This document shows positions 1,512 to 26,891 of a stretch of 64,000 bases of DNA, in pieces. The translations under genes were made by a program, and so were the position numbers. Source of the stretch: Treponemataceae bacterium (GTDB lineage Bacteria; Spirochaetota; Spirochaetia; Treponematales; Rectinemataceae); assembly GCA_963678065.2 (NCBI GenBank), contig CAXXVZ010000003.1, forward strand, positions 352,001-416,000, in the 5' to 3' direction. Every line of letters begins with the position of its first letter. The first letter of the stretch is position 1. Below the pieces are notes generated by a model. It searched no databases. It was not told where the DNA came from and saw only the letters and a list, made by a program, of their open reading frames with translations.

Positions 1512-1520
1512 GATTCTGTT

Positions 1521-2657: not shown

Positions 2658-2701
2658 ATCGCGGCTCTGAGCCGTGATAGAGTTATTTCATGGAGGCTTC
2701 T

Positions 2702-3625: not shown

Positions 3626-3638
3626 TCATCCATCTGCA

Positions 3639-3678
3639 TACAGGGAGCCGTCATTCCGAAACGTGACGGCTCCCTGTA
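3639..3678 (+). terminator. 15-bp hairpin after the SBP gene (mRNA stabiliser or partial terminator)
   Basis: TACAGGGAGCCGTCA-N10-TGACGGCTCCCTGTA, no U tract. Confidence 0.55.
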
Positions 3679-3738
3679 CGGATACTGCCGCGCGGCCCTG
3701 CGGCTGCGCGGACCTGCGTCATGCGGGTCGGGGGAGAC

Positions 3739-5250: not shown

Positions 5251-5263
5251 AGGGGAAGGAACC

Positions 5264-6247: not shown

Positions 6248-6378
6248 GCCAGATATACGACACTTCCGGCCTACGCCGGCCGAAAGTCCGGAACCGGGTC
6301 GGAATCCAAAAGTATGCGATCGCGCGACCGACCGATATGCACAGCGATCACTGCCTTCGTGGCAGAAAGGAAAATGCC

Positions 6379-8186: not shown

Positions 8187-8479
8187 GGCAGACTCCCCGT
8201 TTGTTGCTGTGGAAGGCTCGAATAACTCCCGTGCACCTCATTCTAGTCAGCGCCGACAGGGAAGCAATTGATTTTCATATCGAATTGGTATGGTTTCATT
8301 ATGTCTTTGATGCGGCCCTCCCGGCCGGTCACAGGGGCCTGATCCATTTGCCAGAAAGTCCTCATGGTTTGGAAGAATCGCTCTGTCTCCTGCCTCACGC
8401 GGCCACTATCCTGAACCTGCTTCTACCACAGGGAGTCCGTTTGGGGCGCCCTATTCGTCGCACGAACAGGAGGAAGAAG

Positions 8480-9526: not shown

Positions 9527-9645
9527 AGTTCGCTCAAGGCGCGTAGAGAGCTCCCTTGTGAGTTCGTACGCTTGACCTGCGCAGCATCCGCCTGCCGGCT
9601 TCCGGGAGACGGATGCGCCTTGAATCTTCGACCTGGGAGTCTGCC

Positions 9646-10602
9646 ATGACGTGCAAAGGGATCCGCGACGCGCTCACGCGCAGCTGGGGCATCATCGCGA
9701 TGCTGGTCGCCCTGAACGCCTTTTTCAGCATCGTCTCTCCTTTCTTTTTTACGGCCTACAACTTTGTCAGCATGCTGCACCATGCGGCCTTCATGATGAT
9801 CATGGCAACCGGCATGGTGATGGTGATAGCCACTGGCGGGATCGACGTCTCGATCGGATCGAACATGGCGTTCACCGGCATGGTGGTGGCGAATCTTCTC
9901 GTGAAGGGTGTCCCGATCCCGCTCGCCATTCTCCTCGGGCTCGGACTGGGCACGCTGATCGGGGCGATCAACGGGACCTTCATCGCGAGACTGCGTCTGC
10001 AGCCCCTCATCGTCACTCTGGCCATGCTCAGCATCTTCCGGGGGTCCACTCTTGTGATCTCCGCCGGTTACGCCGTGGCCGGACTTCCGGAAGGGTTCCT
10101 CGACGTCTTCGCCGGCTCCGGGATGATCCAGAACAGTGTGTACATCGGGATCGGCGTCGCCCTCGTCGGTGCCTTAGTCCTGTCACAGAGTCCTTTCGGC
10201 CTGTACGCCCGCGCGGTCGGCAGCAATGAGGAATGCACCTATGTATGTGGAATCGACACGCGGCGGATCAAGGTAATCATCTACAGTGTTCAGGGCGCTC
10301 TCGCCGCCCTCGCTTCGCTGACATTCATGGCTTCCGTGGACGCAGCCGAGCCTTCCGCCGGACTCTCTACCGAATGGATGGAGGCGATCGCGGCCGCCAT
10401 TCTGGGGGGAAACCATCTCTCCGGCGGCAAGGCGCGGATCTTCGGAATGGTCATCGGAACCATGATACTCAGCACGATCCGGAGCGGCCTGAATGTCGTT
10501 CGCGTGCCTCCGGCCTATCAACAGGTTGTCATCGGCCTCGTGTTGGTGACCACAGTGATAGCGGATTCGCTCCGCTCCAAGCGGCGCATGGCGCTGGCAT
10601 AG
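9646..10602 (+). CDS. Sugar ABC transporter permease
   Basis: GGIDVSIGS, PLIVTLA, AVGSN, EAIAAAILGG; alternative start at 9613. Confidence 0.9.
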   Translation: MTCKGIRDALTRSWGIIAMLVALNAFFSIVSPFFFTAYNFVSMLHHAAFMMIMATGMVMVIATGGIDVSIGSNMAFTGMVVANLLVKGVPIPLAILLGLGLGTLIGAINGTFIARLRLQPLIVTLAMLSIFRGSTLVISAGYAVAGLPEGFLDVFAGSGMIQNSVYIGIGVALVGALVLSQSPFGLYARAVGSNEECTYVCGIDTRRIKVIIYSVQGALAALASLTFMASVDAAEPSAGLSTEWMEAIAAAILGGNHLSGGKARIFGMVIGTMILSTIRSGLNVVRVPPAYQQVVIGLVLVTTVIADSLRSKRRMALA

Positions 10603-10612
10603 GAAAGATCAT

Positions 10613-12130
10613 ATGGAAAATGTATTGCTGCGAATGGAAAAGATCTCCAAGTCCTTTGGCGGTATCCAGGCTCTGCTCAACGTGGACCTCTGTCTGCGCA
10701 GCGGGGAAGTGCTCGGTCTGGTCGGAGAGAACGGCGCGGGCAAGTCCACGCTGATGAAAATCCTTTCCGGCATCGTGCAGGCGGACCGCGGAAAGATCCT
10801 CCTCGATGGAGGAGAGACGGCGATCGCCAGTCCGAGCGATGCGCAGAAAATGGGAATAGCGATGATCCCGCAGGAGCTGCTTCTTGTGCCTGAGCTCTCC
10901 GTCGCGCAGAACCTCTTCCTCGGTCACGAGTTGTGCAGCAATGGCGGGCTCCTCAACAAGAAGAGAATGTGCGAGAAGACCGAGGAGATCCTCTCGAGCC
11001 TGGACAGCGCGTATATCCGCGCGGACGCGCTTGTCGGCGAGCTCCCGAAGGCCGACCAGCAGATCGTTGCCATCGCTCGCCGGCTACTTCAGAAGGGCCG
11101 GATTTTCATTATGGATGAGCCCACAGCCGCCCTCACGGGCAAGGAGACTGAGACACTCTTCGGGATCATCCGGAGGATCAGCGCCAGCGGCTGTTCAACC
11201 ATCTATATCTCTCATCGGCTGGAGGAGGATCTGGAGATTTGCGACCGCTTTACGGTCCTGCGGGACGGTGAGGTGGCTCAGGACTTCCCGAATGCTCCTG
11301 AGGTGGACACGCAAACCCTCGTGTATCACATGGTCGGAAGCCGCATCGGTGACGAGTTTCCCCATACCGCCGCGCGGAGGGGAAACGAAGTACTCCGGGT
11401 CAATCGACTTGCCTTCCGTACCTACCAGGGCGCTCTTGTGAAGGACGTCGACTTCTCCCTCCACAAAGGGGAGGTGGTCAGCATCACCGGGCTCGTGGGG
11501 GTCGGAAAGACCGAGCTGGGTCAGACCCTTATGGGCCTGCGCAAGCGGATCGGCGGCTCTCTGTCCCTCGACGGGGCGCAGACAGTTATTCAGTCGCCGA
11601 TGGACGCCGTGCGGCATGGGATCGGGTATGTCAGCGAGGACCGGAGGGATGAGGGCCTCGTGCTCGCCCTGGAAAGTAAGTATAATATGACATTGAGCTG
11701 CCTGAGGAAAATCTCCACCGCCTCGGTGCTCTCCTCCAGCCGCGAGAAGAGGCTCGTGTCGACGTTCATGGACCGGCTGAGCATGAAAGCCCAGTACCTC
11801 GAGATGGAAGCCCAGCAGCTGAGCGGCGGAAACCAGCAAAAGATAGTCATCCTGAGACAGATCATCAGCGACGCGCGGATTATTCTCCTCGACGAACCGA
11901 CAAAGGGGATCGACGTGGGGGCCAAGAGCGAAGTATCCCGCATCATCGGGGAGCTGAGCCAGGAAGGGAAGGCCATCCTGATCTTGTCTTCCGAGCCCCG
12001 CGAGGTGCTCGGTATCAGCGATGTCATCTATGTCCTGACCACTCGGGGGATGCAGGGTCCTTTCATGCGGGGAAATCTGACCTATTCCCAGCTGATGGCG
12101 ATCGAGCTCGGGCAGACTCGCGGAGAATAA
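10613..12130 (+). CDS. Sugar ABC transporter ATP-binding protein
   Basis: GENGAGKS, MDEPT, ISH, LSGGNQQK, LDEPTKGIDVGAK. Confidence 0.95.
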   Translation: MENVLLRMEKISKSFGGIQALLNVDLCLRSGEVLGLVGENGAGKSTLMKILSGIVQADRGKILLDGGETAIASPSDAQKMGIAMIPQELLLVPELSVAQNLFLGHELCSNGGLLNKKRMCEKTEEILSSLDSAYIRADALVGELPKADQQIVAIARRLLQKGRIFIMDEPTAALTGKETETLFGIIRRISASGCSTIYISHRLEEDLEICDRFTVLRDGEVAQDFPNAPEVDTQTLVYHMVGSRIGDEFPHTAARRGNEVLRVNRLAFRTYQGALVKDVDFSLHKGEVVSITGLVGVGKTELGQTLMGLRKRIGGSLSLDGAQTVIQSPMDAVRHGIGYVSEDRRDEGLVLALESKYNMTLSCLRKISTASVLSSSREKRLVSTFMDRLSMKAQYLEMEAQQLSGGNQQKIVILRQIISDARIILLDEPTKGIDVGAKSEVSRIIGELSQEGKAILILSSEPREVLGISDVIYVLTTRGMQGPFMRGNLTYSQLMAIELGQTRGE

Positions 12131-12185
12131 TCCCGCAGGGCGTGTTCCGAGTACAGGGTCTATGTATCGGGAGGGTGTACAAGCA

Positions 12186-13190
12186 ATGCAGAATAGAATT
12201 TCCCTTTCGCGGTTCCACCTGGAGCTGCTTTTCCCCATCGTTGTCGTCGTAGTCGGACTGACTATCGCCTCTCCTCACTTTATGAGTTTCCAGAATTTCG
12301 TGAATGTGGGCAACCAGATCGCGATCAACGTCATTATCGCCCTCGGGATGACTCTCCTTGTCACGGGCGGAGGGATCGATCTTTCCGTCGGCTCCAATGT
12401 CGCTCTGACGGGGGTCATCGTCGCCCAATTCTTCCAGGCGGGGGGACAGGGAGCCGGCGCGGTGTTCCTCGCGATCCTGATCGGTCTGGGAGTGGGGGTG
12501 ACGATAGGAGTCATCAACGGTTTGATCGTCTCGCTCCTCGATGTCCCGCCGTTCATCTGCACACTCGGGACAATGACGGCAATTCGCGGAGTGGCTCTCA
12601 TCGCCTCCGACGGTCGCCCGATCATGGGCATGCCGGACGCATTCCTGAACGTTTTCTATGGCTTTTGGGGAGGAATCCCGAAGCCGGTCATCACGGCCGT
12701 CATTCTTTCGATCCTCATTGCTTTCATTTTCAACAGGACTACCTTTGGCCGGAAGGTAAAGGCCATAGGCGGCAACGAACGCTGCGTCAGAGTCTGCGGC
12801 ATCAATATCGTCCTCATAAAAATCCTGATGTACGGCTTCGTAGGCGGCCTCGCCGGGATGGCCGGGCTCGTGCTCACCACGACGATGGCGACTGCCGAGC
12901 CGCTTGCGGGCACATGGTATGAGCTTGAGGCCGTCGCGGTAGTAGTCATGGGTGGAACCCTTCTGAAGGGCGGGAAAGGAACTATTGTCGGGACATTGCT
13001 TGGCGCCTTGCTGCTGGGCTTGGTGCGGAACGGGCTCAATCTTCTGAGTGTGCATGCCACGTATCACACCCTTGTCGTCGGGCTGCTTATTCTGTTCTCC
13101 GTTGTGATTTCCAGCGATGCTTTCGGGGGTGCCGGGCGGAGAGTGTGGGATCGCATGCGAGGGCAGGCCAAATTTTCGTCTGAGCGATAA
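12186..13190 (+). CDS. Second sugar ABC transporter permease
   Basis: GGIDLSVGS, PPFICTLG, AIGGNE, YELEAVAVVVMGG; alternative start at 12162. Confidence 0.9.
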   Translation: MQNRISLSRFHLELLFPIVVVVVGLTIASPHFMSFQNFVNVGNQIAINVIIALGMTLLVTGGGIDLSVGSNVALTGVIVAQFFQAGGQGAGAVFLAILIGLGVGVTIGVINGLIVSLLDVPPFICTLGTMTAIRGVALIASDGRPIMGMPDAFLNVFYGFWGGIPKPVITAVILSILIAFIFNRTTFGRKVKAIGGNERCVRVCGINIVLIKILMYGFVGGLAGMAGLVLTTTMATAEPLAGTWYELEAVAVVVMGGTLLKGGKGTIVGTLLGALLLGLVRNGLNLLSVHATYHTLVVGLLILFSVVISSDAFGGAGRRVWDRMRGQAKFSSER

Positions 13191-13220
13191 ATAAACCAAA
13201 GCAAAAGAAAGGAGACAGTC

Positions 13221-14312
13221 ATGGCACACTATTTGGACACGGAATTCAGCAAACACGGGCTCCTCTCACGCGTCGGGGATCCCGCGCAGATCGCGCGCGC
13301 GGTGCCGGTCACTCTCGCCGGAGGCAAGGCCGAGGGAGTCGCCGCGGTCCAGCTCAGCACAGGGTCCGGACTGGAGTTCACCGTGCTTCCCGGAAGGGGA
13401 ATGGACATACCCTTCGCTTCATACAACGGCCGTTCCCTGGGGTTTTTCTCCGGCACAGGCATCACTTCACCCGCTTACTACGAGGAGCCGGGTTTGGGGT
13501 GGCTGCGAAGCGCATACTTTGGCCTACTCACGACCTGCGGCATCGTCTCGAGCGGCTTCCCCGATGTCGAGGGAGAGAAGTCCTACGGCCTGCACGGCAG
13601 GGTCTCGAACGCGGCCGCAGAGGATGTCTCGGTTTCCCAGGATTGGGAGGGAGATGAGTATGTCCTGTCGGTACAGGGAAAGATCAGGGAAGCCTGCGCC
13701 TTTAATGAGAATATGCGACTGAAACGGAAGGTAGAAACCCGCCTGGGATGGGATAAGCTGGTCATCCACGACATCATCGAGAACAACGGATTCGAGCCAC
13801 AGCCGCTCATGATGATCTACCATTTCAATTTCGGTTACCCCCTCCTTGGCCCTGGCGCGGAAGTCGTCGGCCCCATCATCAAGAAGGAAGCGCGGGACGA
13901 GGAGGCATGTAAGGATCGCGGGATTGAGGAGAGCCTGTCTTTCCCGGAGCCCCAGGCTGATTACCGCGAGAAAGTTTTCTTCTACAGCCTTGGAGCCGAC
14001 GCAAAAGGGGATACATTCATATCTCTGCTGAATCAGGATATCGGGGACGGTACTCCCCTCGGCATCGTGATGCGCTTCAACAGGAATGAGTTGCCACGGT
14101 TCACACACTGGAAGATGACAGGGCAGGGCTTCTACGTGACGGGGCTCGAGCCGGGCACAGTAGGCCCTCTCGGGCGCAAAAAGGAGCGCGAGCGCGGCTG
14201 TCCTATGCTCGCGGGGCAGGGGTCCTGGCCGATCACCATAGAGTTCGAAGTCCTTCACGATGTCGCGGCCTTCCAGAGGCTGAGGGATGAGGCGGAGACT
14301 CTGAAGAAATAG
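13221..14312 (+). CDS. Aldose 1-epimerase/galactose-mutarotase-like protein (DUF4432 type)
   Basis: TGSGLEFTVLPGRGMDI, GLLTTCG, GLHGR, YHFNFG, YVTGLEPGT. Confidence 0.8.
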   Translation: MAHYLDTEFSKHGLLSRVGDPAQIARAVPVTLAGGKAEGVAAVQLSTGSGLEFTVLPGRGMDIPFASYNGRSLGFFSGTGITSPAYYEEPGLGWLRSAYFGLLTTCGIVSSGFPDVEGEKSYGLHGRVSNAAAEDVSVSQDWEGDEYVLSVQGKIREACAFNENMRLKRKVETRLGWDKLVIHDIIENNGFEPQPLMMIYHFNFGYPLLGPGAEVVGPIIKKEARDEEACKDRGIEESLSFPEPQADYREKVFFYSLGADAKGDTFISLLNQDIGDGTPLGIVMRFNRNELPRFTHWKMTGQGFYVTGLEPGTVGPLGRKKERERGCPMLAGQGSWPITIEFEVLHDVAAFQRLRDEAETLKK

Positions 14313-14425
14313 TCGGCTGCACGTGTGGCGGTGGAGTTTGGTGTTTTTCTGTGGCAAGCGGCAGAAGGCGGTTGCCGCAAAATGGATCACTATCGTCCTG
14401 AAGAGGAACTTAAGGAGGCAGGAAC

Positions 14426-15922
14426 ATGAAGAGGTATGGGCTTCTCATCGACAATGAGCTGTGTGAGCCGGAGGGTGGGCGATACTTTATCTCGAGCGAC
14501 CCTTCGAACGGCGAACCCATCGCGGAGTTCGCCCAGGCCGGTCCCGGCGACGTCCGAGCCGCCTGCGCCGCCGCGAGAGCTGCCTTTGAGAGCGGTTGGG
14601 GCCGGATGGACCCCGACGACCGCGCGGAGCTCATGCACAGGGCCGCCGCAGGGATGAGGCGGAGGCAGCAGGAACTCGCCGAGCTCGAGTCCCGCGACAC
14701 CGGCAAGCCGATACGCGAGAGCGCAGGCTTCGATATACCTTTCTCCATTCTCGCCTTCGACTACTTCGCCGATCTGGGCCGCGAGGTTCTCGGGCATGTC
14801 ATCCCCGTCAAAAACGAGCTCAAGAAAGAATACTTCGACTTTGTGACCTACGAGCCCTACGGCGTCGTCGCGGTCATCAGCCCCTACAATTTTCCCCTCC
14901 ACCTTCTGACGCGGAGCCTCTGCCCGGCCCTCGCCGCGGGAAATACGGCTGTGCTCAAGGCCTCGTCGATGACGCCGGCCACCACCGCGCTGCTCGGGGA
15001 GATACTCGTCGACGCAGGCTTCCCTCCCGGCGTCATCAACGTTGTCTCAGGGGCGGGCTCCACCGTCGGCGAATCTCTCGCCTCCGACCGGGACGTGGGT
15101 GTTATCGCATTCACGGGTTCCGAGGCCGTGGGCCGGAGGCTCATGGAGCTCTCCGCGCGCTCGCCCATAATCAAGAAGACAGTGCTGGAACTCGGCGGGA
15201 AGGGGCCGTACATCGTCGAGCCCGACTGTGACCTCGACGAGGCCGCCGACGCCGCGGTCACAGGCCTGGCTTTCAATCAGGGCGAAGTCTGCTGCGCGAT
15301 GACCCGGCTCATCCTCCACGAGTCGATCTACGAGGACTTCCTCACGAGGCTCGCGTCGCGGCTTGACGCGCTGGTCATAGGGCCGCCCCTCGACCCCGCG
15401 ACACAGATCGGATCACTCGTGAACGCGGCTCAGCTCGAGCGCGTAGACGCCTATGTGCGGGCTGCGATCGGGCGCGGCGCCAGGCTTGTATGCGGCGGAG
15501 AGCGTTATGCCATACCGCCCTGCGACAAAGGGAGTTTTTACCGGCCTACAGTCCTCGACCGCCTTGCGGAGGTCGAGCCTTGTTGGCGCGAGGAGATCTT
15601 CGGTCCCGTCCTCGTCGCGAAACCCTACCGTGAGCTCAAAGAGGCCGTGTCAATGGCCAACGACAGCGATTTCGGCCTTGGCGCGAATCTCTTCACGCGC
15701 GACTACCGCAAGGCCTATTGGGCGTCAAAACGTCTCAACGCCGGCTCGGTCTGGGTCAATGTCAATAACGGCGCCCAAATGAACGCTCCCTTCGGGGGCA
15801 ACAAGAACAGCGGGATGGGCAGGGAATATGGCGTCTTTGGCCTCCACGAATACCTCCGGGCCAAGAACAACTGCTGGAACGTGGGCATCGATCCGCTCGC
15901 CGCGCCTGGCGCGCGGGACTAG
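14426..15922 (+). CDS. NAD(P)+-dependent aldehyde dehydrogenase (non-acylating type)
   Basis: SPYNFP, AFTGS, LELGGK (catalytic Glu), NQGEVCCA (catalytic Cys), EEIFGPV, PFGGNKNSG. Confidence 0.95.
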   Translation: MKRYGLLIDNELCEPEGGRYFISSDPSNGEPIAEFAQAGPGDVRAACAAARAAFESGWGRMDPDDRAELMHRAAAGMRRRQQELAELESRDTGKPIRESAGFDIPFSILAFDYFADLGREVLGHVIPVKNELKKEYFDFVTYEPYGVVAVISPYNFPLHLLTRSLCPALAAGNTAVLKASSMTPATTALLGEILVDAGFPPGVINVVSGAGSTVGESLASDRDVGVIAFTGSEAVGRRLMELSARSPIIKKTVLELGGKGPYIVEPDCDLDEAADAAVTGLAFNQGEVCCAMTRLILHESIYEDFLTRLASRLDALVIGPPLDPATQIGSLVNAAQLERVDAYVRAAIGRGARLVCGGERYAIPPCDKGSFYRPTVLDRLAEVEPCWREEIFGPVLVAKPYRELKEAVSMANDSDFGLGANLFTRDYRKAYWASKRLNAGSVWVNVNNGAQMNAPFGGNKNSGMGREYGVFGLHEYLRAKNNCWNVGIDPLAAPGARD

Positions 15923-16201: not shown

Positions 16202-16295
16202 TATTCGATTTTTTGGAAATCCAGTTTGATTTTTTCCTGTCCGGGGCCCGAAACGGGGCAATCGGAAGCATCAGGAACTGATGCAAGGAGGTTTC

Positions 16296-17312
16296 ATGGC
16301 ACCTGTCAATGTGGGCATAATCGGAGCGGGACGGATCGGAAAGATCCATGCCTCCAACATCGTGTATTACATGCCCCAGGCGAAGGTAAAGACCATCGCG
16401 GATGTCAACCTGACTCCCGCAATCGAGGAATGGGCCGCCGGTCTCGGCATCCCCGTCGCGACGAAGGACCCCGAGTCGATTTTTTCTGATCCCGAGATTT
16501 CCGTCGTTCTCGTCTGCTCGTCCACCGACACGCACGCGGATTTCGTCATCAAGGCCGCCAAAGCGGGAAAGCACATTTTCTGCGAAAAACCAGTCGATCT
16601 GACAGTCGCCAAAGTCAAGGCAGCGCTCGCCGCTGTCGCCGCGGCCAAGGTGAAGCTCCAGGTCGGGTTCAATCGCCGGTTCGATCACAACTTCGCGAAG
16701 GTCCGCGAACTCGTGGCCTCGGGAAGCATCGGCGATCCGCACGTCATCAAGATCACCTCCCGCGATCCTGCGCCGCCGCCACCCGCCTATGTGGCTGTCT
16801 CCGGTGGTATCTTCCTCGACATGACCATCCATGATTTCGACATGGCCCGCTTCCAGGCCGGCAGCGATGTCGTCGAAGTCTACGCGGCGGGCGCCGTCCT
16901 CGTCGATCCCGAAATCGGGAAAGCGGGGGACATCGACACCGCCATCATTACACTGAAATTCGCGAACGGCGCGATCGGTGTCATCGACAATTCCCGCAAG
17001 GCGGCCTACGGTTACGATCAGCGCGTCGAAGTTTTCGGCTCGAAAGGCGCGGCGGCCGCCGAGAACGACGCCGCCAGCACCGTGAAGCTCTCCACCGAAT
17101 CGGGTGTAACGGGCGAGAAGCCCCTCTACTTCTTCCTTGAGCGCTACAAGGAAGCCTTCATCTCTGAAATGCGCGCCTTCCTCGACGCTGTCGCCGGCGA
17201 CAAGCCGGTTTCTGTCACCGGCGAGGACGGCCTGCAGGATCTTCTCGTCGCCCTCGCGGCAAAGAAATCCGTCGCGGAGAAGCGGCCTGTCAGGCTCTCC
17301 GAAATCGCGTAA
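16296..17312 (+). CDS. iolG: myo-inositol 2-dehydrogenase
   Basis: GAGRIG, CEKP, GFNRRFD, ITSRDP, GGIFLDMTIHDFD, YGYDQRVE; heads the iolBDE operon. Confidence 0.9.
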   Translation: MAPVNVGIIGAGRIGKIHASNIVYYMPQAKVKTIADVNLTPAIEEWAAGLGIPVATKDPESIFSDPEISVVLVCSSTDTHADFVIKAAKAGKHIFCEKPVDLTVAKVKAALAAVAAAKVKLQVGFNRRFDHNFAKVRELVASGSIGDPHVIKITSRDPAPPPPAYVAVSGGIFLDMTIHDFDMARFQAGSDVVEVYAAGAVLVDPEIGKAGDIDTAIITLKFANGAIGVIDNSRKAAYGYDQRVEVFGSKGAAAAENDAASTVKLSTESGVTGEKPLYFFLERYKEAFISEMRAFLDAVAGDKPVSVTGEDGLQDLLVALAAKKSVAEKRPVRLSEIA

Positions 17313-17370
17313 TCGTCCCAAAGGGGAGGCCGGAGACGGTCTCCCCTCCTCGCATCTCAAGGAGTACTCC

Positions 17371-18186
17371 ATGCAAACCAAGCATCCGGCCGCCTTCGCG
17401 GCCGGCTATGAAGCGATAGTCGACCGCGCCGGACCGGATGCGGACATGCTCATGGATTTCGGTATTGTCACCCTCGGCTCAGGGGCGAGCTGGGAATCCG
17501 GTCCTGGACTCGAGAGAGCCGTTCTCTTCATGGGCGGAGAGGCGCGTCTCGAATGGGGAGAACCTGGAGCCCCGGCTGCTGCGACCGTATCCCGGCGAAG
17601 TCTTTTCGATGAAAATCCGGCCGTTCTCCATCTCGACAGAAGAATGACCTGCAGAGTGACGGCGGGCGGGCGGGGCGCTGAACTCTCCGTGACGATGACC
17701 GAGAACGCCAAGACCTTTCCTGCGAAGCTCTACGCCCCGGAAGAGTGCCGGAGCGAAGAGCGCGGGAAAGGCACGATGCGCGAAACGAGCACCCGGATTG
17801 TGAGGACTGTCTTCGACGATTCCAACGCCCCCGACTCGAACCTCGTCATAGGCGAAGTGGTCGGGGCACCGGGGAAATGGTCGAGCTATCCACCCCATCA
17901 TCATCCGCAGCCCGAGATTTACCACTACCGCTTCCTGCCTGGCCAAGGTTTCGGCCTCACCGCTATCGGGGACCGCGCCTACATACTCTCAGACAAGGAT
18001 ACCATCCTCATCCGCGACACCGAGGATCATCCGCAGGTGACCGCCCCCGGCTATGCGATGTGGTACCTCTGGGTGATCCGGCATCTCGACGCTGATAGGT
18101 ACATCACCCCCCGCTTTACCGAACAGCATGCATGGGTGGCCGGACCCGATGCCGACATCTGGCTTCCTCCTTCGGAACGGACCTGA
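17371..18186 (+). CDS. iolB: 5-deoxy-glucuronate isomerase
   Basis: GKWSSYPPHHH, EIYHYRF, HPQVTAPGYAMWYLW. Confidence 0.9.
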   Translation: MQTKHPAAFAAGYEAIVDRAGPDADMLMDFGIVTLGSGASWESGPGLERAVLFMGGEARLEWGEPGAPAAATVSRRSLFDENPAVLHLDRRMTCRVTAGGRGAELSVTMTENAKTFPAKLYAPEECRSEERGKGTMRETSTRIVRTVFDDSNAPDSNLVIGEVVGAPGKWSSYPPHHHPQPEIYHYRFLPGQGFGLTAIGDRAYILSDKDTILIRDTEDHPQVTAPGYAMWYLWVIRHLDADRYITPRFTEQHAWVAGPDADIWLPPSERT

Positions 18187-18221
18187 GGTCCATAGGGCGC
18201 CACAGACAACAGGAGATGATT

Positions 18222-20087
18222 ATGGAAACCATAAAGCTGACAGTCGGCCAGGCTCTCGTCCGTTTCCTCGACAACCAGTACATCGAGCTGGACGGCGAAG
18301 AAAGCAAATTCGTCGAAGGTGTCTTCGGCATATTTGGTCACGGAATCGTCGTCGGACTGGGCGAGGCGCTCGCGGCGCCGGGGCATGGTCTTACGTTTTA
18401 TCAGGGAAAGAACGAACAGGGTATGACGCATGCCGCCATCGGTTTTGCCAAACAGAATGACTGCAGGAGGATCATGGCCGTGACGACATCCATCGGCCCG
18501 GGAGCCCTCAACATGGTCACTGCGGCAGGCACAGCCACCGTCAACCACGTTCCTGTCCTCCTTCTGCCGGCGGACGCCTACGCCTGCAGGCAGCCCGATC
18601 CTGTTCTTCAGCAGGTCGAGACCCCGGATGACTACACAAACACCGCCAACGATGCCTTCAGGGCGGTATCCCGGTACTGGGACAGAGTGAACAGGCCGGA
18701 ACAGCTCATGACGGCCATGATCAATGCCATGCGCGTATTGATCGATCCGGTGCAGGCCGGGGCCGTGACCATCGCGCTACCCCAGGATGTACAGGGCGAG
18801 GCCTACGACTATCCCGTCGAGTTCTTCGCAAAGCGAGTCCACCACATCGAGAGGCGCATCCCTTCCGAGGCTGCGGTGGAGCGCGCGGTCGCCATGATCC
18901 AGGCGGCGTCAAAGCCTCTCGTCATCTGCGGCGGAGGCGTGCGCTACTCCCGTGCGGGAGCCGAACTCGCGGCGTTCTGCAGGAAATTCCACATTCCCTT
19001 CGGCGAGACACAGGCAGGCAAGGGCGTCATCCTCTGGGACAATCCCTACAATCTTTCAGGAATCGGACTTACCGGAAGTCAGGCCGCGAACCGCATCGCC
19101 AAGGCCTCCGACCTCGTCATCGCGGTCGGAACACGGCTTGGAGACTTCACCACCTGCTCCAAGTGGCTTTTTCAGAATCCGGACTGCAGATTCCTCGGCA
19201 TCAACGTCGCTTCCTTCGATGCATACAAGATGAACGCCGAACCGATGATCGCCGACGCGAAGCTCGCGCTCGCGGCGATCACCCGATCTCTCGCGAGGAA
19301 AGGATATCATTCCGCGTGGGGTGACGCGATCGAGCGCGAGCGCGCACTTTGGAAGGCGGAAGTGGACAGGTTGTACTCCGAAGATGTGCCCGAGGGGCTT
19401 TCCCAGGCTCGCGCGCTCGGGGAGCTGAACGACAGGCTCCTTCCGCGCGACGCGGTCTGCATCTCCGGCTCCGGATCGATCCCAAGCGACATGCAGCGCG
19501 TTTGGCGCGTCCGTGTTCCGGGGACCTACCATATGGAGTACGGATTCTCCTGCATGGGCTACGAAGTGGCGGCCGGTCTCGGCGTCAAGATAGCGGAGCC
19601 GGACCGGGAAGTCGTCGTCATCGTTGGGGACGGCGCCTACACCATGCTGCACACCGAACTTCTGACCGCCGTGCAGGAGGGCAGGAAGATAATCGTCGTC
19701 GTGCTTGACAATTCCGGATTCCACTGCATCGACAATCTCCAGAACAGCCAGGGCATCGAACATTTCGCCAACGAGTGGAGGAGCCGCGACCCGGCTACCG
19801 GCAGGCTCACCGGGCCTACGGTCAAAGTCGATTTCGCCAAGAACGGCGAGAGCTGGGGCGCTGTCGGTCTTCGTGCGCGCACGGTCGACGAGTTCAGAAA
19901 GGCGGTCAGACGGGCGCTCAAGGAAAAAGGACCTGTCGTCATCGACGCCAAGGTCGCTCCCAAGTCCATGACCAAAGGGTACGAATCCTTCTGGCGCGTG
20001 GGCACCGCGGAAGTCTCGCACAATCCGGCCGTCGTGGCGGCAGCAGCCGTCGTCAAGGCCGAAGTTGCCAAATCCAGAAAATTCTAG
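18222..20087 (+). CDS. iolD: 3D-(3,5/4)-trihydroxycyclohexane-1,2-dione acylhydrolase (ThDP-dependent)
   Basis: LTVGQALVRFL, GIFGHG, NEQGM, RQPDPVLQQ, YHMEYGFSCMGYE, GDG...N ThDP motif. Confidence 0.95.
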   Translation: METIKLTVGQALVRFLDNQYIELDGEESKFVEGVFGIFGHGIVVGLGEALAAPGHGLTFYQGKNEQGMTHAAIGFAKQNDCRRIMAVTTSIGPGALNMVTAAGTATVNHVPVLLLPADAYACRQPDPVLQQVETPDDYTNTANDAFRAVSRYWDRVNRPEQLMTAMINAMRVLIDPVQAGAVTIALPQDVQGEAYDYPVEFFAKRVHHIERRIPSEAAVERAVAMIQAASKPLVICGGGVRYSRAGAELAAFCRKFHIPFGETQAGKGVILWDNPYNLSGIGLTGSQAANRIAKASDLVIAVGTRLGDFTTCSKWLFQNPDCRFLGINVASFDAYKMNAEPMIADAKLALAAITRSLARKGYHSAWGDAIERERALWKAEVDRLYSEDVPEGLSQARALGELNDRLLPRDAVCISGSGSIPSDMQRVWRVRVPGTYHMEYGFSCMGYEVAAGLGVKIAEPDREVVVIVGDGAYTMLHTELLTAVQEGRKIIVVVLDNSGFHCIDNLQNSQGIEHFANEWRSRDPATGRLTGPTVKVDFAKNGESWGAVGLRARTVDEFRKAVRRALKEKGPVVIDAKVAPKSMTKGYESFWRVGTAEVSHNPAVVAAAAVVKAEVAKSRKF

Positions 20088-20099
20088 AGGAGATACATC

Positions 20100-20987
20100 A
20101 TGAGCGGAAAAATCAGACTTGCCATAGCGCCCATCGGCTGGACGAACGATGACCTTCCGGAGCTCGGCGGCCAGATTCCCTTCGAACAGTGCGTCAGCGA
20201 GATGGCTCTCGCCGGATTCGAGGGCAGTGAGGTCGGCAACAAGTACCCCAAGGATCCTGCCGTACTCAACAAGGCTCTCGCGCTTCGCGGGCTCACCATC
20301 TGCAACGCCTGGTTCTCGAGCTTCCTCACCACGAAGCCCCTGAAGGAAGTCGAAAAGGAATTTATCGCCCACCGCGACTTTCTCTACGCGGTCGGCGCGC
20401 GGGTCATCGGCGCCGCCGAGCAAGGTAATTCCATTCAAGGCAAGGATATTTCAGTTTTTGGAGCGAAACCTGTTTTCTCCGCCGACGAGTGGAAAAAGCT
20501 TGGCGATGGGCTGAACCACCTCGGTGAGCTCGCGAACGAGAAGGGCATGAAGCTCACCTACCACCATCACATGGGCACGGGCGTCCAGACCGCCTCCGAA
20601 ATCGATAAACTCATGGAGCTGACGGAGCCAGGGCTCTGCGACCTCCTCTACGACACGGGGCATCTCGTGTTCTCGGGCGAGGACCACCTGGCCATACTCG
20701 AAAAATATGCGTCCCGCATCAAGCACGTTCATCTCAAGGACCTGCGCCCCGCGGTCGTGGCCAAGGTCAAAGCCGAGGGGTGGAGCTTTCTCAAAGCCGT
20801 CAAATCCGGAGCCTTCACTGTGCCAGGCGATGGCTGCATCGATTTTGTCCCTGTCTTCGGCGCACTCAAGAAATCGGGCTACGAGGGCTGGTGGGTCGTC
20901 GAGGCCGAACAGGACCCCGCCCTCGCCAATCCTTTCGAGTATGCGGTGAAGGCCCGAACCTATATCCGGGAGAAAGCAGGCATCTGA
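20100..20987 (+). CDS. iolE: myo-inosose-2 dehydratase
   Basis: [41 protein letters not shown]. Confidence 0.95.
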
Positions 20988-21147: not shown

Positions 21148-22176
21148 ATGGCGAAGGTGCGAGTGGGAGTGGCGGGATACGGAGTGATAGGGCAGAGGCT
21201 GGCGGACGGGGTGGCGCTGCAGGGGGACATGGAGCTGGTGGGTGTGGCGGACGTTGCGCCGACGCTGTCGGTGCGAGCGCTGCGCGAGCGGGGGATGCCA
21301 TACAAATTCTACACAGCACTTCCTGAGAAGCGAGCGGAGCTGGATAAGGCGGGCATTCCGATAACGGGCACGCTCGAGGAGCTCGTGCAGAGCGTGGACG
21401 TGATGCTGGACGCGACGAGCGCGGGGGTTGGGGCGAAGAACAAGGAACTGTACGCGAAATACGGGAAGAAGGGGATATTCCAGGGAGGGGAGAAGAACTC
21501 GGTGGCGGATGTGTTCTTCCACGGGTACGCGAACTACGAGAAGGGGTTGGGGGCGCAGTTTCTGAAGTTGACGAGCTGCAACACGACGGGGTTGATCCGG
21601 GCGGTGGACTGTCTTGACCGGGAAGTCGGGGTCGAGAAAGTGGCGATCACGATCATCCGCCGCGTGGCCGATCCGGGGGACTACCACCGGGGTCTGACGA
21701 ACGCGCTGCAACTTGAGCATGCGCCGAGCCATCAGGCGCTCGACCTGATGACGATCATGCCGCAGGTGGACGCGACGGGGATCCTTGTGCACACGCCGGT
21801 GACGCACGGGCACATCATCACGGTATTGGCGACGACGAAGAAGACGGTGAGCCCGGAGAGCACGCGCGAGATGTTGGCGGAGCATCCGCGGATCAGGATG
21901 GTGAGTCTGGCGGAAGGGTTTTTGGGGAACGCGAGCTTTTTCCGGTACGCGCGGGATCTGGGGAATCCGCGAGGGGACATGTACGAGATCGGGTGCTGGG
22001 AAGACTCGATCGTGATGAGCGGGAAGGATGTGATGTTTGCGATCAACATACCGCAGGAGTCGGTGGTGATACCGGAGAATATGGACGGGGTGCGGGCGTG
22101 CATGGGGATGCAGTCCGACAGGCTGGAAGCGACGGGGATGACGAACAAGTATCTGGGCATCGGGAAGTGGCGCTGA
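21148..22176 (+). CDS. Type II (archaeal-type) glyceraldehyde-3-phosphate dehydrogenase homologue
   Basis: GYGVIGQRLADGV, IFQGGEK, SCNTTGL (C144), IRRVADP, RGDMYE, QESVVIPENMD. Confidence 0.9.
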   Translation: MAKVRVGVAGYGVIGQRLADGVALQGDMELVGVADVAPTLSVRALRERGMPYKFYTALPEKRAELDKAGIPITGTLEELVQSVDVMLDATSAGVGAKNKELYAKYGKKGIFQGGEKNSVADVFFHGYANYEKGLGAQFLKLTSCNTTGLIRAVDCLDREVGVEKVAITIIRRVADPGDYHRGLTNALQLEHAPSHQALDLMTIMPQVDATGILVHTPVTHGHIITVLATTKKTVSPESTREMLAEHPRIRMVSLAEGFLGNASFFRYARDLGNPRGDMYEIGCWEDSIVMSGKDVMFAINIPQESVVIPENMDGVRACMGMQSDRLEATGMTNKYLGIGKWR

Positions 22177-22201
22177 GGGCGCGGGGGACAAGGAGAAGCC
22201 G

Positions 22202-23497
22202 ATGAGCGGAGCCCGACTGAAGATGAAGCCCGTGACCGAGTGTGCGCTTGCAGGGAAGACGGTGTTGTTTCGGCCTGACATCAACTCGCCGATCGATCCG
22301 GAGACGAAGCGGATCGTGAACAGGAACCGGCTGGAGAAGACGGTGCCGACCTTGAATCTGCTTTTGGAGGGTAAAGCGAAGGTGGCGCTGATAGCGCATC
22401 AGGGCGACACGCTGGATTATCAGAATCTGATACCGATGGAGGAGCACGCGGCGATCCTGACGAAGCTGACGGGGAAGAAGGTGGGCTACATCGACGATGT
22501 GTGCGGACCTGCGGCCTGTCAGGCGGTGAGCACGCTTGCGCCCGGTGAGGCGGTGATACTGGGGAACCTGCGCTACCTGAGTGAGGAGATCTCGAGCTTC
22601 GAGAGTGCGGTGAAGCTGAAGCCGAGCCAGATGCTGGACACGTGGCTGGTGAGGAAGCTTGCGCCACTTGCGGATCTGTACGTGAACGACGCGTTTGCGG
22701 CGGCACACCGGAACGCGCCCTCGATGGTGGCGTTCCAGGAGCTTGTGCCGACAGCGGCGGGGATACAGCTGATGGACGAGTATACGGCGCTGAAGTCGGT
22801 GATGGACAGTCCGAAGCGTCCCTGCGTGTACGTGCTGGGAGGAGCGAAGATATCGGACGCCTTCGACATGATGAGGAAGGTGCTGACAGACGGGAGTGCG
22901 GACAGAATCCTGACGGCGGGCGTGACAGGGATGGTGATGCACATAGCGCGGGGAGTGGACCTCGGGCCTGCGGTGATGAAGTTTCTGGTCGACAAGGGAT
23001 TGGAGGGGTTCATTCCGGAAGCGAAGGCTCTTCTTGCCGAGTTTGGGGACAGGTATGTGTTGCCGGTGGACATGGCATACGAGTGCGCGGAACCCGGATC
23101 GATCGGCGTGCGCGCGGAAGCCCCGATCGCGGAGCTGCCGAGGGACAGGATCTTTCCGGACATCGGGCACGCGACGATCGCGCTGTTCAAGGAGCACATT
23201 GCTCAGGCGGGCTCGGTGTTCGTGAACGGGCCGGCTGGGGTGTACGAGGATGCGCGCTGGGAGGCGGGGACGAAGGAAGTGTGGCGCGCGATCGCGGAGG
23301 CTCCCGGGTACACGGTGGTGGGAGGAGGGGACACGATCAGCGCGGCGACCCGCTTTACGGACCTGTCGAAATATGGGTATGTATGTACGGGTGGCGGCGC
23401 GATGGTGCGCTTTCTCGCGGGCAAGAAGCTCCCTCTCATCGAGGCGATGGAGAAGGCCTTCGAGCGCAACCTGAACGCAGCTATCAACCGACACTAG
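22202..23497 (+). CDS. pgk: Phosphoglycerate kinase homologue (archaeal-type sequence features)
   Basis: RPDINSPID, YVNDAFAAAHR, LGGAKISD, NGPAGVYE, GGGDT, CTGGGA. Confidence 0.9.
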   Translation: MSGARLKMKPVTECALAGKTVLFRPDINSPIDPETKRIVNRNRLEKTVPTLNLLLEGKAKVALIAHQGDTLDYQNLIPMEEHAAILTKLTGKKVGYIDDVCGPAACQAVSTLAPGEAVILGNLRYLSEEISSFESAVKLKPSQMLDTWLVRKLAPLADLYVNDAFAAAHRNAPSMVAFQELVPTAAGIQLMDEYTALKSVMDSPKRPCVYVLGGAKISDAFDMMRKVLTDGSADRILTAGVTGMVMHIARGVDLGPAVMKFLVDKGLEGFIPEAKALLAEFGDRYVLPVDMAYECAEPGSIGVRAEAPIAELPRDRIFPDIGHATIALFKEHIAQAGSVFVNGPAGVYEDARWEAGTKEVWRAIAEAPGYTVVGGGDTISAATRFTDLSKYGYVCTGGGAMVRFLAGKKLPLIEAMEKAFERNLNAAINRH

Positions 23498-23510
23498 AAG
23501 GAAGGAACGA

Positions 23511-24965
23511 ATGAAACTGGATCTCTCTCTCAAGGATCTTTCGAAGGCCTTTCCCGTGGATCTGACGCCCGACCAGAAAGCAAAGGCGCAAACCCTCTTC
23601 CTGAAGAAGCTCTCGATTTCGGCGCATGAGTTTTTCGGCGGCAAGATGCAGACCGTACCCATGTGTGGCCTGTGGGGCTTCAACTGGTTCAACGTCTGGT
23701 ACACGCCTGGCGTCTCTGCGGTCTCGACGACGATCCGCGACAACAACGACGCGTCGTTCGCGCTGTCGAACCGCGGAAACCTCGTCGCGGTCGTGTCCGA
23801 TTCCACTCGCGTTCTCGGTGACGGCGACTGCACGCCTCCCGGAGGACTCGGCGTCATGGAGGGCAAAGCCTTCCTCATGAAGTACCTCGGAGGCGTCGAC
23901 GCTGTGGCGCTGTGCGTGGATTCCCGCGGACCTGACGGTAAACACGATCCGGACAAGATCATCGAGTTCGTGAAGATGCTGCAGCCGAGCTTCGGAGCCG
24001 TAAACCTCGAGGACATCAGCCAGCCGAATTGCTTCAAGGTCCTGGACGAACTCCGCGAGAGCTGCGACATTCCGGTCTGGCACGACGACGCCCAGGGGAC
24101 GGCCTGCGTGACTCTCGCGGGACTCCTCAACGCCCTGAAGCTCGCGGGAAAGAAGCTCGGAGACGCGAAGATCGTGCTGCTCGGCGCCGGAGCGTCGAAC
24201 ACGACGATTGCCCGGCTGATCCTCGCGGACGGCGGCGACCCCGCGAAGATGATCATGTTTGACTCGAAAGGCGGTCTGCACCTGGGCAGGGCCGATATCG
24301 AGAAGGATAAGAGGAACTACCGCAAGTGGGAGCTCTGTCAGAGAACGAACCCCGGCAGGGTCCAGACGGAGGCCGAGGCTATCGCGGGGGCGGATGTCCT
24401 CATCGCGCTCTCGACACCCGGACCGGACACGGTGAAGCGCGAGTGGGTACACTCGATGGCGCCGAAGTCCATCGTCTTTGCCTGCGCGAACCCTGTGCCG
24501 GAGATCTGGCCGCATGCGGCGAAGGAAGAGGGCGCCTACATCGTGGCGACCGGCCGTGGCGACTTTCCGAATCAGGTCAACAACTCCGTCTGCTTCCCCG
24601 GCCTCCTCAAAGGGGCCCTGCTGGTGCGCGCCCGCAAAGTTACAGACGGAATGGCGATCCGGTGTTCGCACTCGATCGCGGACTTTGCGGAGAAGCGCGG
24701 GATCAGCGAAAACGACATCACGGCGCGGATGGACGAGTCAGAGGTCTTCGCGATCCAGGCTGCCGACGTCGCCATGAAGGCGATAGAGGAAGGAGTCGCG
24801 CGCGTGATCATGACCTGGGATGAAGTTTACAACAGGGCGAAGGCGGACATCGCGGCCTCCCGGAAACTGACAGAGGACCTCATGAGGCTGGGACACATTA
24901 AGGAGCCGCCTGAGTCGATGCTGCAGGAAGCCCTCGATTGGGCCATAGCGCAGGTCAGGAAATAA
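23511..24965 (+). CDS. NAD(P)-dependent malic enzyme (small bacterial/archaeal type)
   Basis: WYTPGV, VMEGKA, NLEDI, VWHDDAQGT, LGAGA, ANPVPEI, TGRGDFPNQVNN. Confidence 0.92.
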   Translation: MKLDLSLKDLSKAFPVDLTPDQKAKAQTLFLKKLSISAHEFFGGKMQTVPMCGLWGFNWFNVWYTPGVSAVSTTIRDNNDASFALSNRGNLVAVVSDSTRVLGDGDCTPPGGLGVMEGKAFLMKYLGGVDAVALCVDSRGPDGKHDPDKIIEFVKMLQPSFGAVNLEDISQPNCFKVLDELRESCDIPVWHDDAQGTACVTLAGLLNALKLAGKKLGDAKIVLLGAGASNTTIARLILADGGDPAKMIMFDSKGGLHLGRADIEKDKRNYRKWELCQRTNPGRVQTEAEAIAGADVLIALSTPGPDTVKREWVHSMAPKSIVFACANPVPEIWPHAAKEEGAYIVATGRGDFPNQVNNSVCFPGLLKGALLVRARKVTDGMAIRCSHSIADFAEKRGISENDITARMDESEVFAIQAADVAMKAIEEGVARVIMTWDEVYNRAKADIAASRKLTEDLMRLGHIKEPPESMLQEALDWAIAQVRK

Positions 24966-25019
24966 ACTCGCCAGGGTGTTGAAAACGAGCAGCTTTCAAC
25001 ACCCTCTACGGAGGATCGC

Positions 25020-26300
25020 ATGAAGCTGGATATTCCGTATTATGGAAAACACATACCACTCGTGCTGCCGGAGGGTGTACCGGTCGATATCCTTGAGCCG
25101 AACGACCTGGCGGGAGAAGACGGTATCCCCGGCACAGATGCTGCGGCAGCGGCGATCCGTGTGAACACGGCAGTGAATTCGCCCTTGGATGCGCTGCCGC
25201 TTCACGAGTTCCTGGCGGGAGGGGAGAAGATCCTCGTCATCGTGAACGACGCGACACGGCCGACCCCGACTCGGATCGTCCTCGACGCAATCGCGGATGA
25301 GCTCGCGAAAGCGCAGGCTCGCTTCATTGTCGCGACAGGCGCTCACCGGGCCCCGACCGAAGAAGAGTACCGCCAGATATTCGGAGCTCACTACGACGCA
25401 TTCCGTTCCCGTTGTACCGCTCACGTCGCGCGCGACGAATCGAGCCTCGTCGACCTCGGCGCGACGCGCAACGGAACGCCGATCCTCCTCAACAGGGCTG
25501 TCTTCGAGGCCGACCGCGTGGTCGCGATCGGGTCGGTGGAGCCGCACTATTTCGCGGGCTACACCGGCGGACGGAAGGCCTTCCTCCCCGGCGTTGCGGG
25601 CTTCAGGACCATCGAGGCGAACCACAAACTGGCTCTGTCCGACATGGCGCGGGCCTGCGAGCTTGCGCACAACCCCGTGAGCCAGGACATGGACGATGCC
25701 CTCAATCTCATAGCGGTGCCGGTGTTTTCCATAATGACAGTGCTCGACAAAGACCAGAACCTCGCATGGTGCTCGGCCGGGGATATCCGCTCCTCCTTCG
25801 ACGAGGCGGTGAGCAAGGCCGACGCTATTTTCACCGTGCCGATACTGAGGAAAGCGGACCTTGTGGTCTCTGTGGCGCGTTTTCCGATGGACATCGATCT
25901 CTACCAGTCGCAGAAGGCGATCGACAATGGTTCGCTGGCCCTGAAGGACGGAGGGACGCTGATCATGGTTTCGTCCTGCCGCGATGGGGTGGGGGACAGG
26001 GCTTTTCTCGACCTGATGGGCAGAGCGAAGGGCCCTGAGGACGCTCTTGCGCGGATCGGAGAGGGTTACCGGCTTGGCTATCACAAGGCGGCGAAGCTTG
26101 CCCTCATAGCGCAGCGCGCCTCCATACGGGCCGTCTGCGAGCTTGATCCTGCGCTCCTGTCGAAAGCGTTCATAGCGTCCTGCCCGGACCTGCAGAGGGC
26201 GGTGGACGATATTCTCGCCGCAGCGGGTCCCGGCGCCACCGTTGCCTTTCTCCCCGACGGAAGCGTCACTGTGCCGAGGTTCGTGACGCGGATCCCGTAA
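25020..26300 (+). CDS. larA: Nickel-pincer-dependent 2-hydroxyacid racemase/epimerase (LarA family)
   Basis: VNDATRPTP, ATGAHR, EPHYFAGYTGGRK, EANH, DLYQSQKA; substrate unknown. Confidence 0.9.
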   Translation: MKLDIPYYGKHIPLVLPEGVPVDILEPNDLAGEDGIPGTDAAAAAIRVNTAVNSPLDALPLHEFLAGGEKILVIVNDATRPTPTRIVLDAIADELAKAQARFIVATGAHRAPTEEEYRQIFGAHYDAFRSRCTAHVARDESSLVDLGATRNGTPILLNRAVFEADRVVAIGSVEPHYFAGYTGGRKAFLPGVAGFRTIEANHKLALSDMARACELAHNPVSQDMDDALNLIAVPVFSIMTVLDKDQNLAWCSAGDIRSSFDEAVSKADAIFTVPILRKADLVVSVARFPMDIDLYQSQKAIDNGSLALKDGGTLIMVSSCRDGVGDRAFLDLMGRAKGPEDALARIGEGYRLGYHKAAKLALIAQRASIRAVCELDPALLSKAFIASCPDLQRAVDDILAAAGPGATVAFLPDGSVTVPRFVTRIP

Positions 26301-26339
26301 AGATTGTGTTTTGGACGCGGCGGAACTATACTCTTCAGT

Positions 26340-26891
26340 ATGAGAGAGAAGGCCGGCTTCGAGTTGCGGACGAAGACTCTCCTTGTCGTCTTCGGGCTCT
26401 GCGCCTTTCTCGCTGTATTTGCGGCAGTCGATACGGCCGAGTATTACCGGGCATGGAGCCAGGCCCGGAACTGGACAGATGTCCAGAAATCCGTAGCTCC
26501 CGCCGTGGACGCGATGAGAATGTATGCACTCATTCTGGCGGCTCTGGTTCTCGATACGGCAGTTATTGCGCTATCTTTCGCGGGCGGCCTTGCGCTCGGA
26601 ATATCCACGACGACCGAGAGCCGGCTCGCTTCCAGGGTGACATACTTTCTCTGTGTAGCCTCCGTCCTCGCGGGTCTCTGCTTTGCGATTGTCATGTCTT
26701 TCTATCGCGTCAACCTTGGACTGCGCATGGTCCTGAAGGGCCCCATTTTCGATTACACTATGAGGATACAGCCGCCTGTCGCTCTGGCCATGGCAGCTTT
26801 TCCCGTATTGACGGTCTTTCTGCCGTTCATTCGGGGGAAACGGCCGCTCAAAGGACGAAGAGCCGGGCAATTCCATACTGAAACAGGATAG
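26340..26891 (+). CDS. Hypothetical membrane protein (about 4 TM)
   Basis: ORF with four hydrophobic segments; no recognisable motif. Confidence 0.6.
   Translation: MREKAGFELRTKTLLVVFGLCAFLAVFAAVDTAEYYRAWSQARNWTDVQKSVAPAVDAMRMYALILAALVLDTAVIALSFAGGLALGISTTTESRLASRVTYFLCVASVLAGLCFAIVMSFYRVNLGLRMVLKGPIFDYTMRIQPPVALAMAAFPVLTVFLPFIRGKRPLKGRRAGQFHTETG

Follow-up and report, generated by a model that had tools for sequence, protein, structure and literature searches.

The 64,000-nucleotide stretch analysed here (the window; contig CAXXVZ010000003.1 of the Treponemataceae assembly GCA_963678065.2) carries, directly after genes of inositol catabolism, four genes encoding a class II glyceraldehyde-3-phosphate dehydrogenase (GAPDH), a phosphoglycerate kinase (PGK) homologue, a malic enzyme and a LarA-family protein. 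Judged from sequence and gene neighbourhood, these four genes probably form the lower half of an inositol route which depends on a transketolase cut, runs via D-malic semialdehyde and D-malate with a gain of ATP, and dispenses with IolC, IolJ and IolA. An earlier sequence-only reading had proposed ATP-yielding oxidation of a non-phosphorylated aldehyde, followed by racemisation and decarboxylation. Its outline was largely right and the observation behind it is real: the accessory nature of the GAPDH/PGK pair and the conserved neighbourhood, two points on which it could have failed by its own terms, speak for it, while its active-site argument proved weaker. The step missing from it, the transketolase, was supplied by the neighbourhood evidence.

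Gene order in the window and in related genomes

The upper inositol genes and the four-gene unit are arranged as follows:
16281-17312, plus strand: iolG, inositol 2-dehydrogenase of the upper pathway (TIGR04380, 483 bits, cut-off 355)
17137-18186, plus strand: iolB-family 5-deoxyglucuronate isomerase (PF04962, 178 bits; TIGR04378, 88.8 bits, below the cut-off of 205)
18132-20087, plus strand: iolD, ring-opening hydrolase (TIGR04377, 896 bits, cut-off 715)
20100-20987, plus strand: iolE, inosose dehydratase (TIGR04379, 419 bits, cut-off 290)
21148-22176, plus strand: class II GAPDH (open reading frame, ORF)
22202-23497, plus strand: PGK homologue (ORF)
23511-24965, plus strand: malic enzyme (ORF)
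25020-26300, plus strand: LarA-family protein (ORF)

All four upper genes are thus present, iolB by its Pfam match only; this iolB clusters with the iolB of 28 related loci, and its true start probably lies later than the ORF start at 17137. The ORF coordinates bear out the close, co-oriented spacing described before (gaps of 25, 13 and 54 bp, all on the plus strand), as well as the position directly after iolE, whose end lies 160 bp before the GAPDH start. Neither tpi nor eno was found among the 25 scanned ORFs of window positions 8201-39017, as the sequence-only reading had said. Its statement that iolA is missing is correct for the cluster, which lacks both iolJ and iolA; four class II aldolases and four methylmalonate-semialdehyde dehydrogenases (MMSDHs, above cut-off) are encoded elsewhere in the genome.

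The GAPDH/PGK pair is accessory and is not the glycolytic set of this genome. A separate class I gap and a canonical pgk lie together at C3:981.8-984.2 kb, and class I gap was detected in every other carrier genome of two sets (50/50 and 5/5). The PGK of the unit (PF00162, 332 bits; best PDB match the archaeal 2cun) is only 30% identical to the housekeeping PGK.

It is instructive to follow the unit across other taxa. A scan that covered part of the GTDB genomes yielded 558 relatives. The analysis used the best 80 of them, and contig ends truncate many of these loci. Spirochaetes are the nearest relatives, and the carriers belong to Spirochaetota, Bacillota, Chloroflexota and Atribacterota, with Clostridium magnum DSM 2767, Fonticella tunisiensis and Intestinibacillus massiliensis (L069) as named cultured representatives. 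Among the 80 loci the neighbours of the GAPDH gene are PGK (79), LarA (45), the split transketolase genes tktN (33) and tktC (32), malic enzyme (29), and the upper inositol genes iolD (32), iolE (32), iolG (30) and iolB (28). The four-gene neighbourhood is conserved, all four genes occurring together in 24 loci, 13 of them in the order of the window. For example, a typical clostridial operon reads mae-gap-pgk-tktN-tktC-iolB-iolD-iolE-iolG-larA. The transketolase had been predicted before the loci were mapped, and a split transketolase was then found in 33 of the 80; homologues of iolC, class II aldolase, transaldolase and MMSDH occur in none of them.

The absence of iolC extends to whole genomes. 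In that of the window the best of 19 profile matches reached 139.7 bits against a cut-off of 300. Only 1 of 35 genomes with iol genes in the locus, and 2 of 50 overall, have an iolC above the cut-off, and the first of these exceptions carries two separate canonical operons; a further set of carriers, which may overlap the first, has none (0/14). As a control, iolD was made the only criterion for drawing genomes, which gave 6 of 300 spirochaetes and 19 of 397 Clostridia; the window's genome and two pre-selected ones were not included, and two further genomes could not be scored. In this blind draw iolC was present in 0 of 7 carriers versus 14 of 18 non-carriers (Fisher p 0.0007, a value that is overstated because kin are not independent). 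Four genomes had neither iolC nor the pair; three of them have a transaldolase and an aldehyde dehydrogenase in the iol operon, and in the fourth iolD is cut by a contig end. Carriers without iol genes in the locus have iolD elsewhere in 12 of 20 cases, against the background frequencies of the draw, and so do all five lone-pair genomes tested. In one Intestinibacillus genome the split transketolase adjoins iolB-iolD.

The proposed route and its enzymes

IolG, IolE, IolD and IolB lead to 2-deoxy-5-keto-D-gluconate (DKG, a 5-deoxy-fructuronate), which the enzymes encoded in the window would be expected to make. DKG has the D-threo C3/C4 ketose pattern of fructose and is therefore a plausible transketolase donor. 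From its stereochemistry, a transketolase would move C5-C6 of DKG to glyceraldehyde 3-phosphate (GAP) or ribose 5-phosphate and leave (R)-3-hydroxy-4-oxobutanoate. This D-malic semialdehyde would match GAP in its configuration at C2, with a carboxylate where GAP has the phosphate ester. The class II GAPDH could then serve as a phosphorylating D-malic semialdehyde dehydrogenase, giving D-malyl-1-phosphate and NADH, and the PGK copy as a D-malyl-phosphate:ADP phosphotransferase, giving D-malate and ATP. According to their family functions, LarA would turn D-malate into L-malate and the malic enzyme would convert this to pyruvate and CO2, with D-malate dehydrogenase as a possible alternative in some genomes. 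Malic enzyme acts on the opposite enantiomer of malate, which would account for the racemase, or for the D-malate dehydrogenase in its place. The C2 unit would return via the pentose phosphate pathway; no phosphoketolase, another fate for this unit, was found in the window's genome.

The GAPDH matches its family profiles well (NF003251, 402 bits, cut-off 185; TIGR01546, 301 bits, cut-off 232.9), and its model has the fold of 2czc and 1cf2 (Foldseek, TM-score 0.85-0.88). The confidence of the model (predicted local distance difference test) is 84 but falls below 50 in the substrate loop 175-192, so the model is silent on specificity. In the Methanothermus fervidus enzyme (1cf2 numbering), the account in PMC12041015 names Cys140 and His219 as catalytic, Arg167 and Arg168 as ligands of the GAP phosphate, and Ser139, Asn141, Arg167, His193 and His194 as an anion site marked by sulfate. 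The window's clade retains C144, H222, R171 and R172 (81-82 of the 82 rows, which include one wrong-frame ORF), and the window protein also keeps Ser143, Asn145 and His195. The sulfate-marked site is nevertheless incomplete: 81 of 82 clade rows have Gln196 as the counterpart of His194, whereas 74 distant class II proteins have His in 60 cases and Gln in 6. Similarly, the NADP-type Lys after the second beta strand is replaced by Asp35 in 81 of 82 rows (Lys 29 and Asp 17 among the 74 distant proteins), and the window GAPDH is likely NAD-linked. In the GAPDH tree the close relatives form a cluster with a support of 93, which a relative of 59% identity does not join cleanly. The archaeal enzymes (GAPDH 1cf2, 2czc, 1b7g and 2yyy; PGK 2cun) share the fold, the catalytic Cys and His and most anion-site residues but are only about 34-40% identical. 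The window's clade differs from the archaeal GAPDHs also by two extra conserved histidines (His215 and His220), besides Gln196 and Asp35, and by coexisting with a class I gap in each of the carrier genomes tested.

In PGK, residues D26, N28, R43, H66, R124 and R170 and the nucleotide-site motifs are conserved in 78 of 78 rows. We take R43 to correspond in role to Arg38 of the PGK site; the roles of Asp23, Asn25, His62, Arg122 and Arg170 are those given in PMC7729029. Arg65 of the otherwise retained basic patch is replaced in all 80 PGKs of the clade, by Asp in 65, Ser in 13 and Gly in 2, the window protein having Asp69.

The malic enzyme contains PF00390 and PF03949 (PDB 3nv9, E 6e-203) and by family would convert L-malate to pyruvate and CO2. 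LarA finds its best model in LarAH6 malate racemase (NF052593, 371 bits, below the cut-off of 500) and its best PDB match in Mar2 (6d6z). It has both LYQSQK, with Q before the catalytic K, and GYHK, signatures that PMC7583248 links to malate specificity; Q before K and GxHK each occur in 45 of 46 LarA proteins. The protein is likely a malate racemase. With Mar2/LarAH6, enzymes dependent on the nickel-pincer nucleotide (6d6z, as treated in PMC7583248), it shares catalytic and cofactor-binding residues in addition to these signatures. According to the supplement of the same paper, genes for PGK, GAPDH and malic enzyme occasionally lie in the neighbourhood of larA. In 6 of the 80 loci LarA and malic enzyme are replaced by a TTC-family (tartrate/D-malate) dehydrogenase above cut-off. 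None of these six loci has LarA or malic enzyme as well, and they represent about four independent lineages. Across 53 genomes TTC is found in four, each of which carries a TTC locus of this kind.

A candidate for the transketolase of the window's genome is encoded at C4:83149-85151. It is 62-66% identical to in-operon spirochaete copies and groups with three in-operon ones (Shimodaira-Hasegawa-like approximate likelihood-ratio support 97, quick tree), and it likely serves the route. A close transketolase (at least 57%) exists elsewhere in 12 of 15 spirochaete carriers without one in the locus, compared with 0 of 3 iolC-bearing spirochaetes.

Opposing evidence and rival explanations

Several results weigh against the transketolase route. 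The sequence-only reading had stated that both GAPDH and PGK carry substitutions at residues for the substrate phosphate. In GAPDH both GAP-phosphate arginines, R171 and R172, are in fact kept, and what remains of the claim is one histidine of the sulfate site, now Gln196. In PGK Asp69 does replace the counterpart of Arg65, but this Asp is shared by the genome's housekeeping PGK and the change is not diagnostic; as a whole the substitution argument is only a hint, weaker than first stated. The malate exit raises further difficulties. The malic enzyme is the genome's sole copy found by tblastn and may also be a housekeeping enzyme. Besides its score below the LarAH6 cut-off, LarA has Y-F where Mar2 has Y-K. 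The genes larB, larC and larE were not found in the genome (99.9% complete), nor was TTC, which leaves D-malate racemisation with no evident source of its cofactor. Just 27 of 50 carriers yielded a larE, and LarA and TTC are both missing from 7 of 33 full-length loci. On the side of DKG cleavage, transketolase is absent from the window and 3 of the 15 spirochaete carriers lack a close one. The C4 copy adjoins an acylating aldehyde dehydrogenase and an ADP-forming CoA ligase, and with such SqwD/SqwKL-like neighbours it may serve another sugar. A transaldolase at C5:1041163-1042350, 58% identical to iol-operon ones and about 9 kb from an MMSDH, is a possible rival exit for DKG. In one genome (G586) the pair lies 160 kb from a transaldolase-type iol operon, beside a truncated larA. 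Lastly, no iolD was found in 8 of the 20 carriers without iol genes in the locus.

How well do other explanations account for the same genes? If GAPDH and PGK were ordinary isoenzymes for GAP and 3-phosphoglycerate, raising the glycolytic capacity of cells that grow on inositol, with LarA and malic enzyme as a separate D/L-malate module, then the passing of family thresholds, the retained catalytic residues and GAP-phosphate arginines, an Asp69 compatible with housekeeping function in this genome, and the loci that hold the pair alone would all fit. This explanation is nevertheless unlikely, as it accounts neither for the absence of iolC in carriers and of tpi, nor for the malate exit and transketolase, which accompany the pair in four phyla despite the shuffling of genes, and the lone-pair genomes tested have iolD elsewhere. 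Plants use a transketolase route from 5-keto-gluconate to tartrate. A bacterial analogue one oxidation level higher than our proposal, in which a transketolase would cut a 5-keto-gluconate and the pair would oxidise tartrate semialdehyde to tartrate for LarA or TTC to handle, draws on TTC being the tartrate dehydrogenase family, on the IolO-like epimerase of a few loci and on the tartrate epimerisation described as a side activity of Mar enzymes in PMC11770544. However, iolD, present in the window and in 32 of the 80 loci, leads to a 2-deoxy compound, and malic enzyme (29/80) fits malate, which makes tartrate quite improbable.

DKG might instead be cut by a transaldolase or aldolase, the pair then making ATP as it oxidises malonate semialdehyde, or some other small aldehyde, to the corresponding acid. 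The genome does have an iol-type transaldolase homologue, and transaldolase iol operons exist in four Clostridia. However, an MMSDH or acylating aldehyde dehydrogenase is already encoded within these operons, and transaldolase is absent from all 80 loci. Moreover, malonate offers no 2-hydroxyl to LarA, and the hydroxyl at C2 to which PGK binds (PMC7729029) is missing from malonate semialdehyde, so we regard this as very improbable. Among the candidate substrates named by the sequence-only reading, malate semialdehyde stands, whereas malonate semialdehyde, lactaldehyde and glyceraldehyde are disfavoured because they leave the malate-type racemase, its exchange for D-malate dehydrogenase and the transketolase unexplained. 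Sulfoglycolysis yields sulfolactaldehyde, a sulfonate that mimics GAP just as well; the genome's nearest transketolase has SqwD/SqwKL-like neighbours, and TauE occurs in three loci. But iol genes are what recurs around the pair, malic enzyme and TTC point to malate, and the annotated neighbours include no recurrent glycosidase/isomerase cluster and no sulfoquinovose isomerase, SqwI or sulfonate exporter (no dedicated sulfoquinovose family search was made). We find this substrate extremely improbable.

Known pathways and further observations

The transketolase route via D-malate has relatives on several sides. With the canonical pathway IolG-E-D-B-C-J-A, as presented for Anaerostipes in PMC8355322, it would share the upper genes iolG, iolE, iolD and iolB. 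It differs in that the genome has no iolC above cut-off, the cluster has no iolJ or iolA, and the proposed C2+C4 transketolase cut would replace the ATP-primed C3+C3 aldol cut. In the sulfo-TK pathway the transketolase SqwGH acts on unphosphorylated sulfofructose, according to PMC12890257. The likeness lies in a split transketolase of anaerobes working on an unphosphorylated anionic ketose, and the SqwD/SqwKL variant likewise gains ATP from the aldehyde. The proposed route would employ a carboxylate and not a sulfonate, make one cut, return its product to central metabolism, and form ATP through an acyl-phosphate (GAPDH/PGK) in place of acyl-CoA. Carnitine catabolism in Acinetobacter, by malic semialdehyde dehydrogenase and D-malate dehydrogenase, gives a precedent for the sequence from malic semialdehyde to D-malate to pyruvate and CO2. 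As far as PMC11353897 describes it, that pathway starts from another carbon source and has a non-phosphorylating aldehyde dehydrogenase, no ATP gain and no racemase gene. The route would thus resemble sulfo-TK in its upper and the carnitine D-malate route in its lower part, belonging to neither. No description of a transketolase/D-malate inositol route, or of D-malyl-1-phosphate as an energy-rich metabolite, was found in the literature searched, which excludes most subscription journals, so that earlier publication of the route is possible.

Inositol is the core of dietary and soil phytate. We lean towards a broader interpretation, in which a bacterial clade of archaeal-type GAPDH/PGK has been re-purposed for ATP formation via D-malyl-1-phosphate as the inositol lower half in anaerobes of at least four phyla. 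There would then be three interchangeable lower halves (kinase/aldolase, transaldolase and transketolase), mirroring sulfoglycolysis, and the missing D-malate source for many LarA racemases, some in cells without known cofactor genes. If this is true, two enzyme reactions and one substrate-level phosphorylation, all of them new, are added to inositol breakdown, and hundreds of genes now called "type II GAPDH" and "PGK" would have their annotation corrected. It would likewise explain the many anaerobe genomes with iolG/E/D/B but without iolC/iolJ, a gap that PMC13617567 reports for hen-gut genomes and leaves unresolved. Malate racemases would obtain a physiological D-malate source; their in vivo role and the origin of D-malate are left open in PMC7583248. 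Conversion of inositol to butyrate by I. massiliensis is cited as unpublished in PMC12482443.

Dysosmobacter welbionis was considered as a carrier but not counted, the supplement rows of PMC13311982 showing one PGK gene and a class I GAPDH (two of the three "glyceraldehyde" entries seen). In this species DKG-6-phosphate is reported, and on inositol phosphoketolase rises 2.6-fold, IolD 3.1-fold and IolG 2.5-fold (supplement 5 of the same paper). By atom tracing, the [4-13C] and [4,5-13C2] acetate patterns are identical under either route.

A third iol variant occurs in four Clostridia without iolC, whose iol operons combine a transaldolase with either MMSDH or an acylating aldehyde dehydrogenase (L089:6910-7986, L090:7074-8150, L091:7862-8941, L092:7994-9070). 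Here unphosphorylated DKG would be cut to malonate semialdehyde; the literature search returned no description of this variant. In the window's genome two clusters contain a split transketolase. The one with the C4 copy (L117:5150-12733, G000:C4:83149-90732) combines it with an acylating aldehyde dehydrogenase, a succinyl-CoA-synthetase-like pair and a DASS transporter. It resembles the SqwGH/SqwD/SqwKL arrangement, or might be a parallel route through CoA that handles a related aldehyde. The other (L119:4337-16351, G000:C5) contains transaldolase, a branched-chain-type ABC transporter, a Zn dehydrogenase, the split transketolase and MMSDH. The housekeeping PGK (C3:981788-983143) has an insertion of about 20 residues after the Asp at the Arg65 position. 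Five LarA homologues (C3:377020, C3:601472, C4:503913, C2:113415 and C5:972072) are encoded in this genome where larBCE were not found, and many spirochaete carriers are likewise without larE.

In other carriers, the module adjoins an acetoin/pyruvate-dehydrogenase-like E1a-E1b-E2-E3 set in L023, L053 and L077, and C. magnum has two module copies (L021 and L023). IolO-like epimerases near the module in L001 (by eye only), L035, L055 and L079 suggest entry from other keto-aldonates. In L001 a full-length transketolase-sized ORF directly follows larA. In the window, the ORF right behind larA (26306-26881) has 191 amino acids, no Pfam or NCBIfam match and no paralogue in the genome. Promoter and terminator scans of the region gave chance-level counts (2 against 2.4; 13 against 9.1). 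Contigs from four lake metatranscriptomes of a single study match parts of the region with 90-99% identity, one of them spanning gap-pgk; they are uninformative on level, strand and co-transcription and so were not used as evidence.

Two other genes of the window were tried as pathway enzymes and rejected. The aldehyde dehydrogenase at 14426-15922 is not IolA (TIGR01722, 223 bits against a cut-off of 448.5), and as a malic semialdehyde dehydrogenase it has generic matches only and a homologue in none of the 80 loci. The PfkB kinase at 218-1102 is not among the TIGR04382 matches for IolC and is present in 2 of the 80 loci. This kinase belongs to a second inositol-type cluster (218-7215) with a second iolG-like gene, an ABC transporter and a TIM-barrel isomerase, and the aldehyde dehydrogenase lies upstream of iolG in a region (8201-15922) with an allose-like ABC transporter and a DUF4432 gene.

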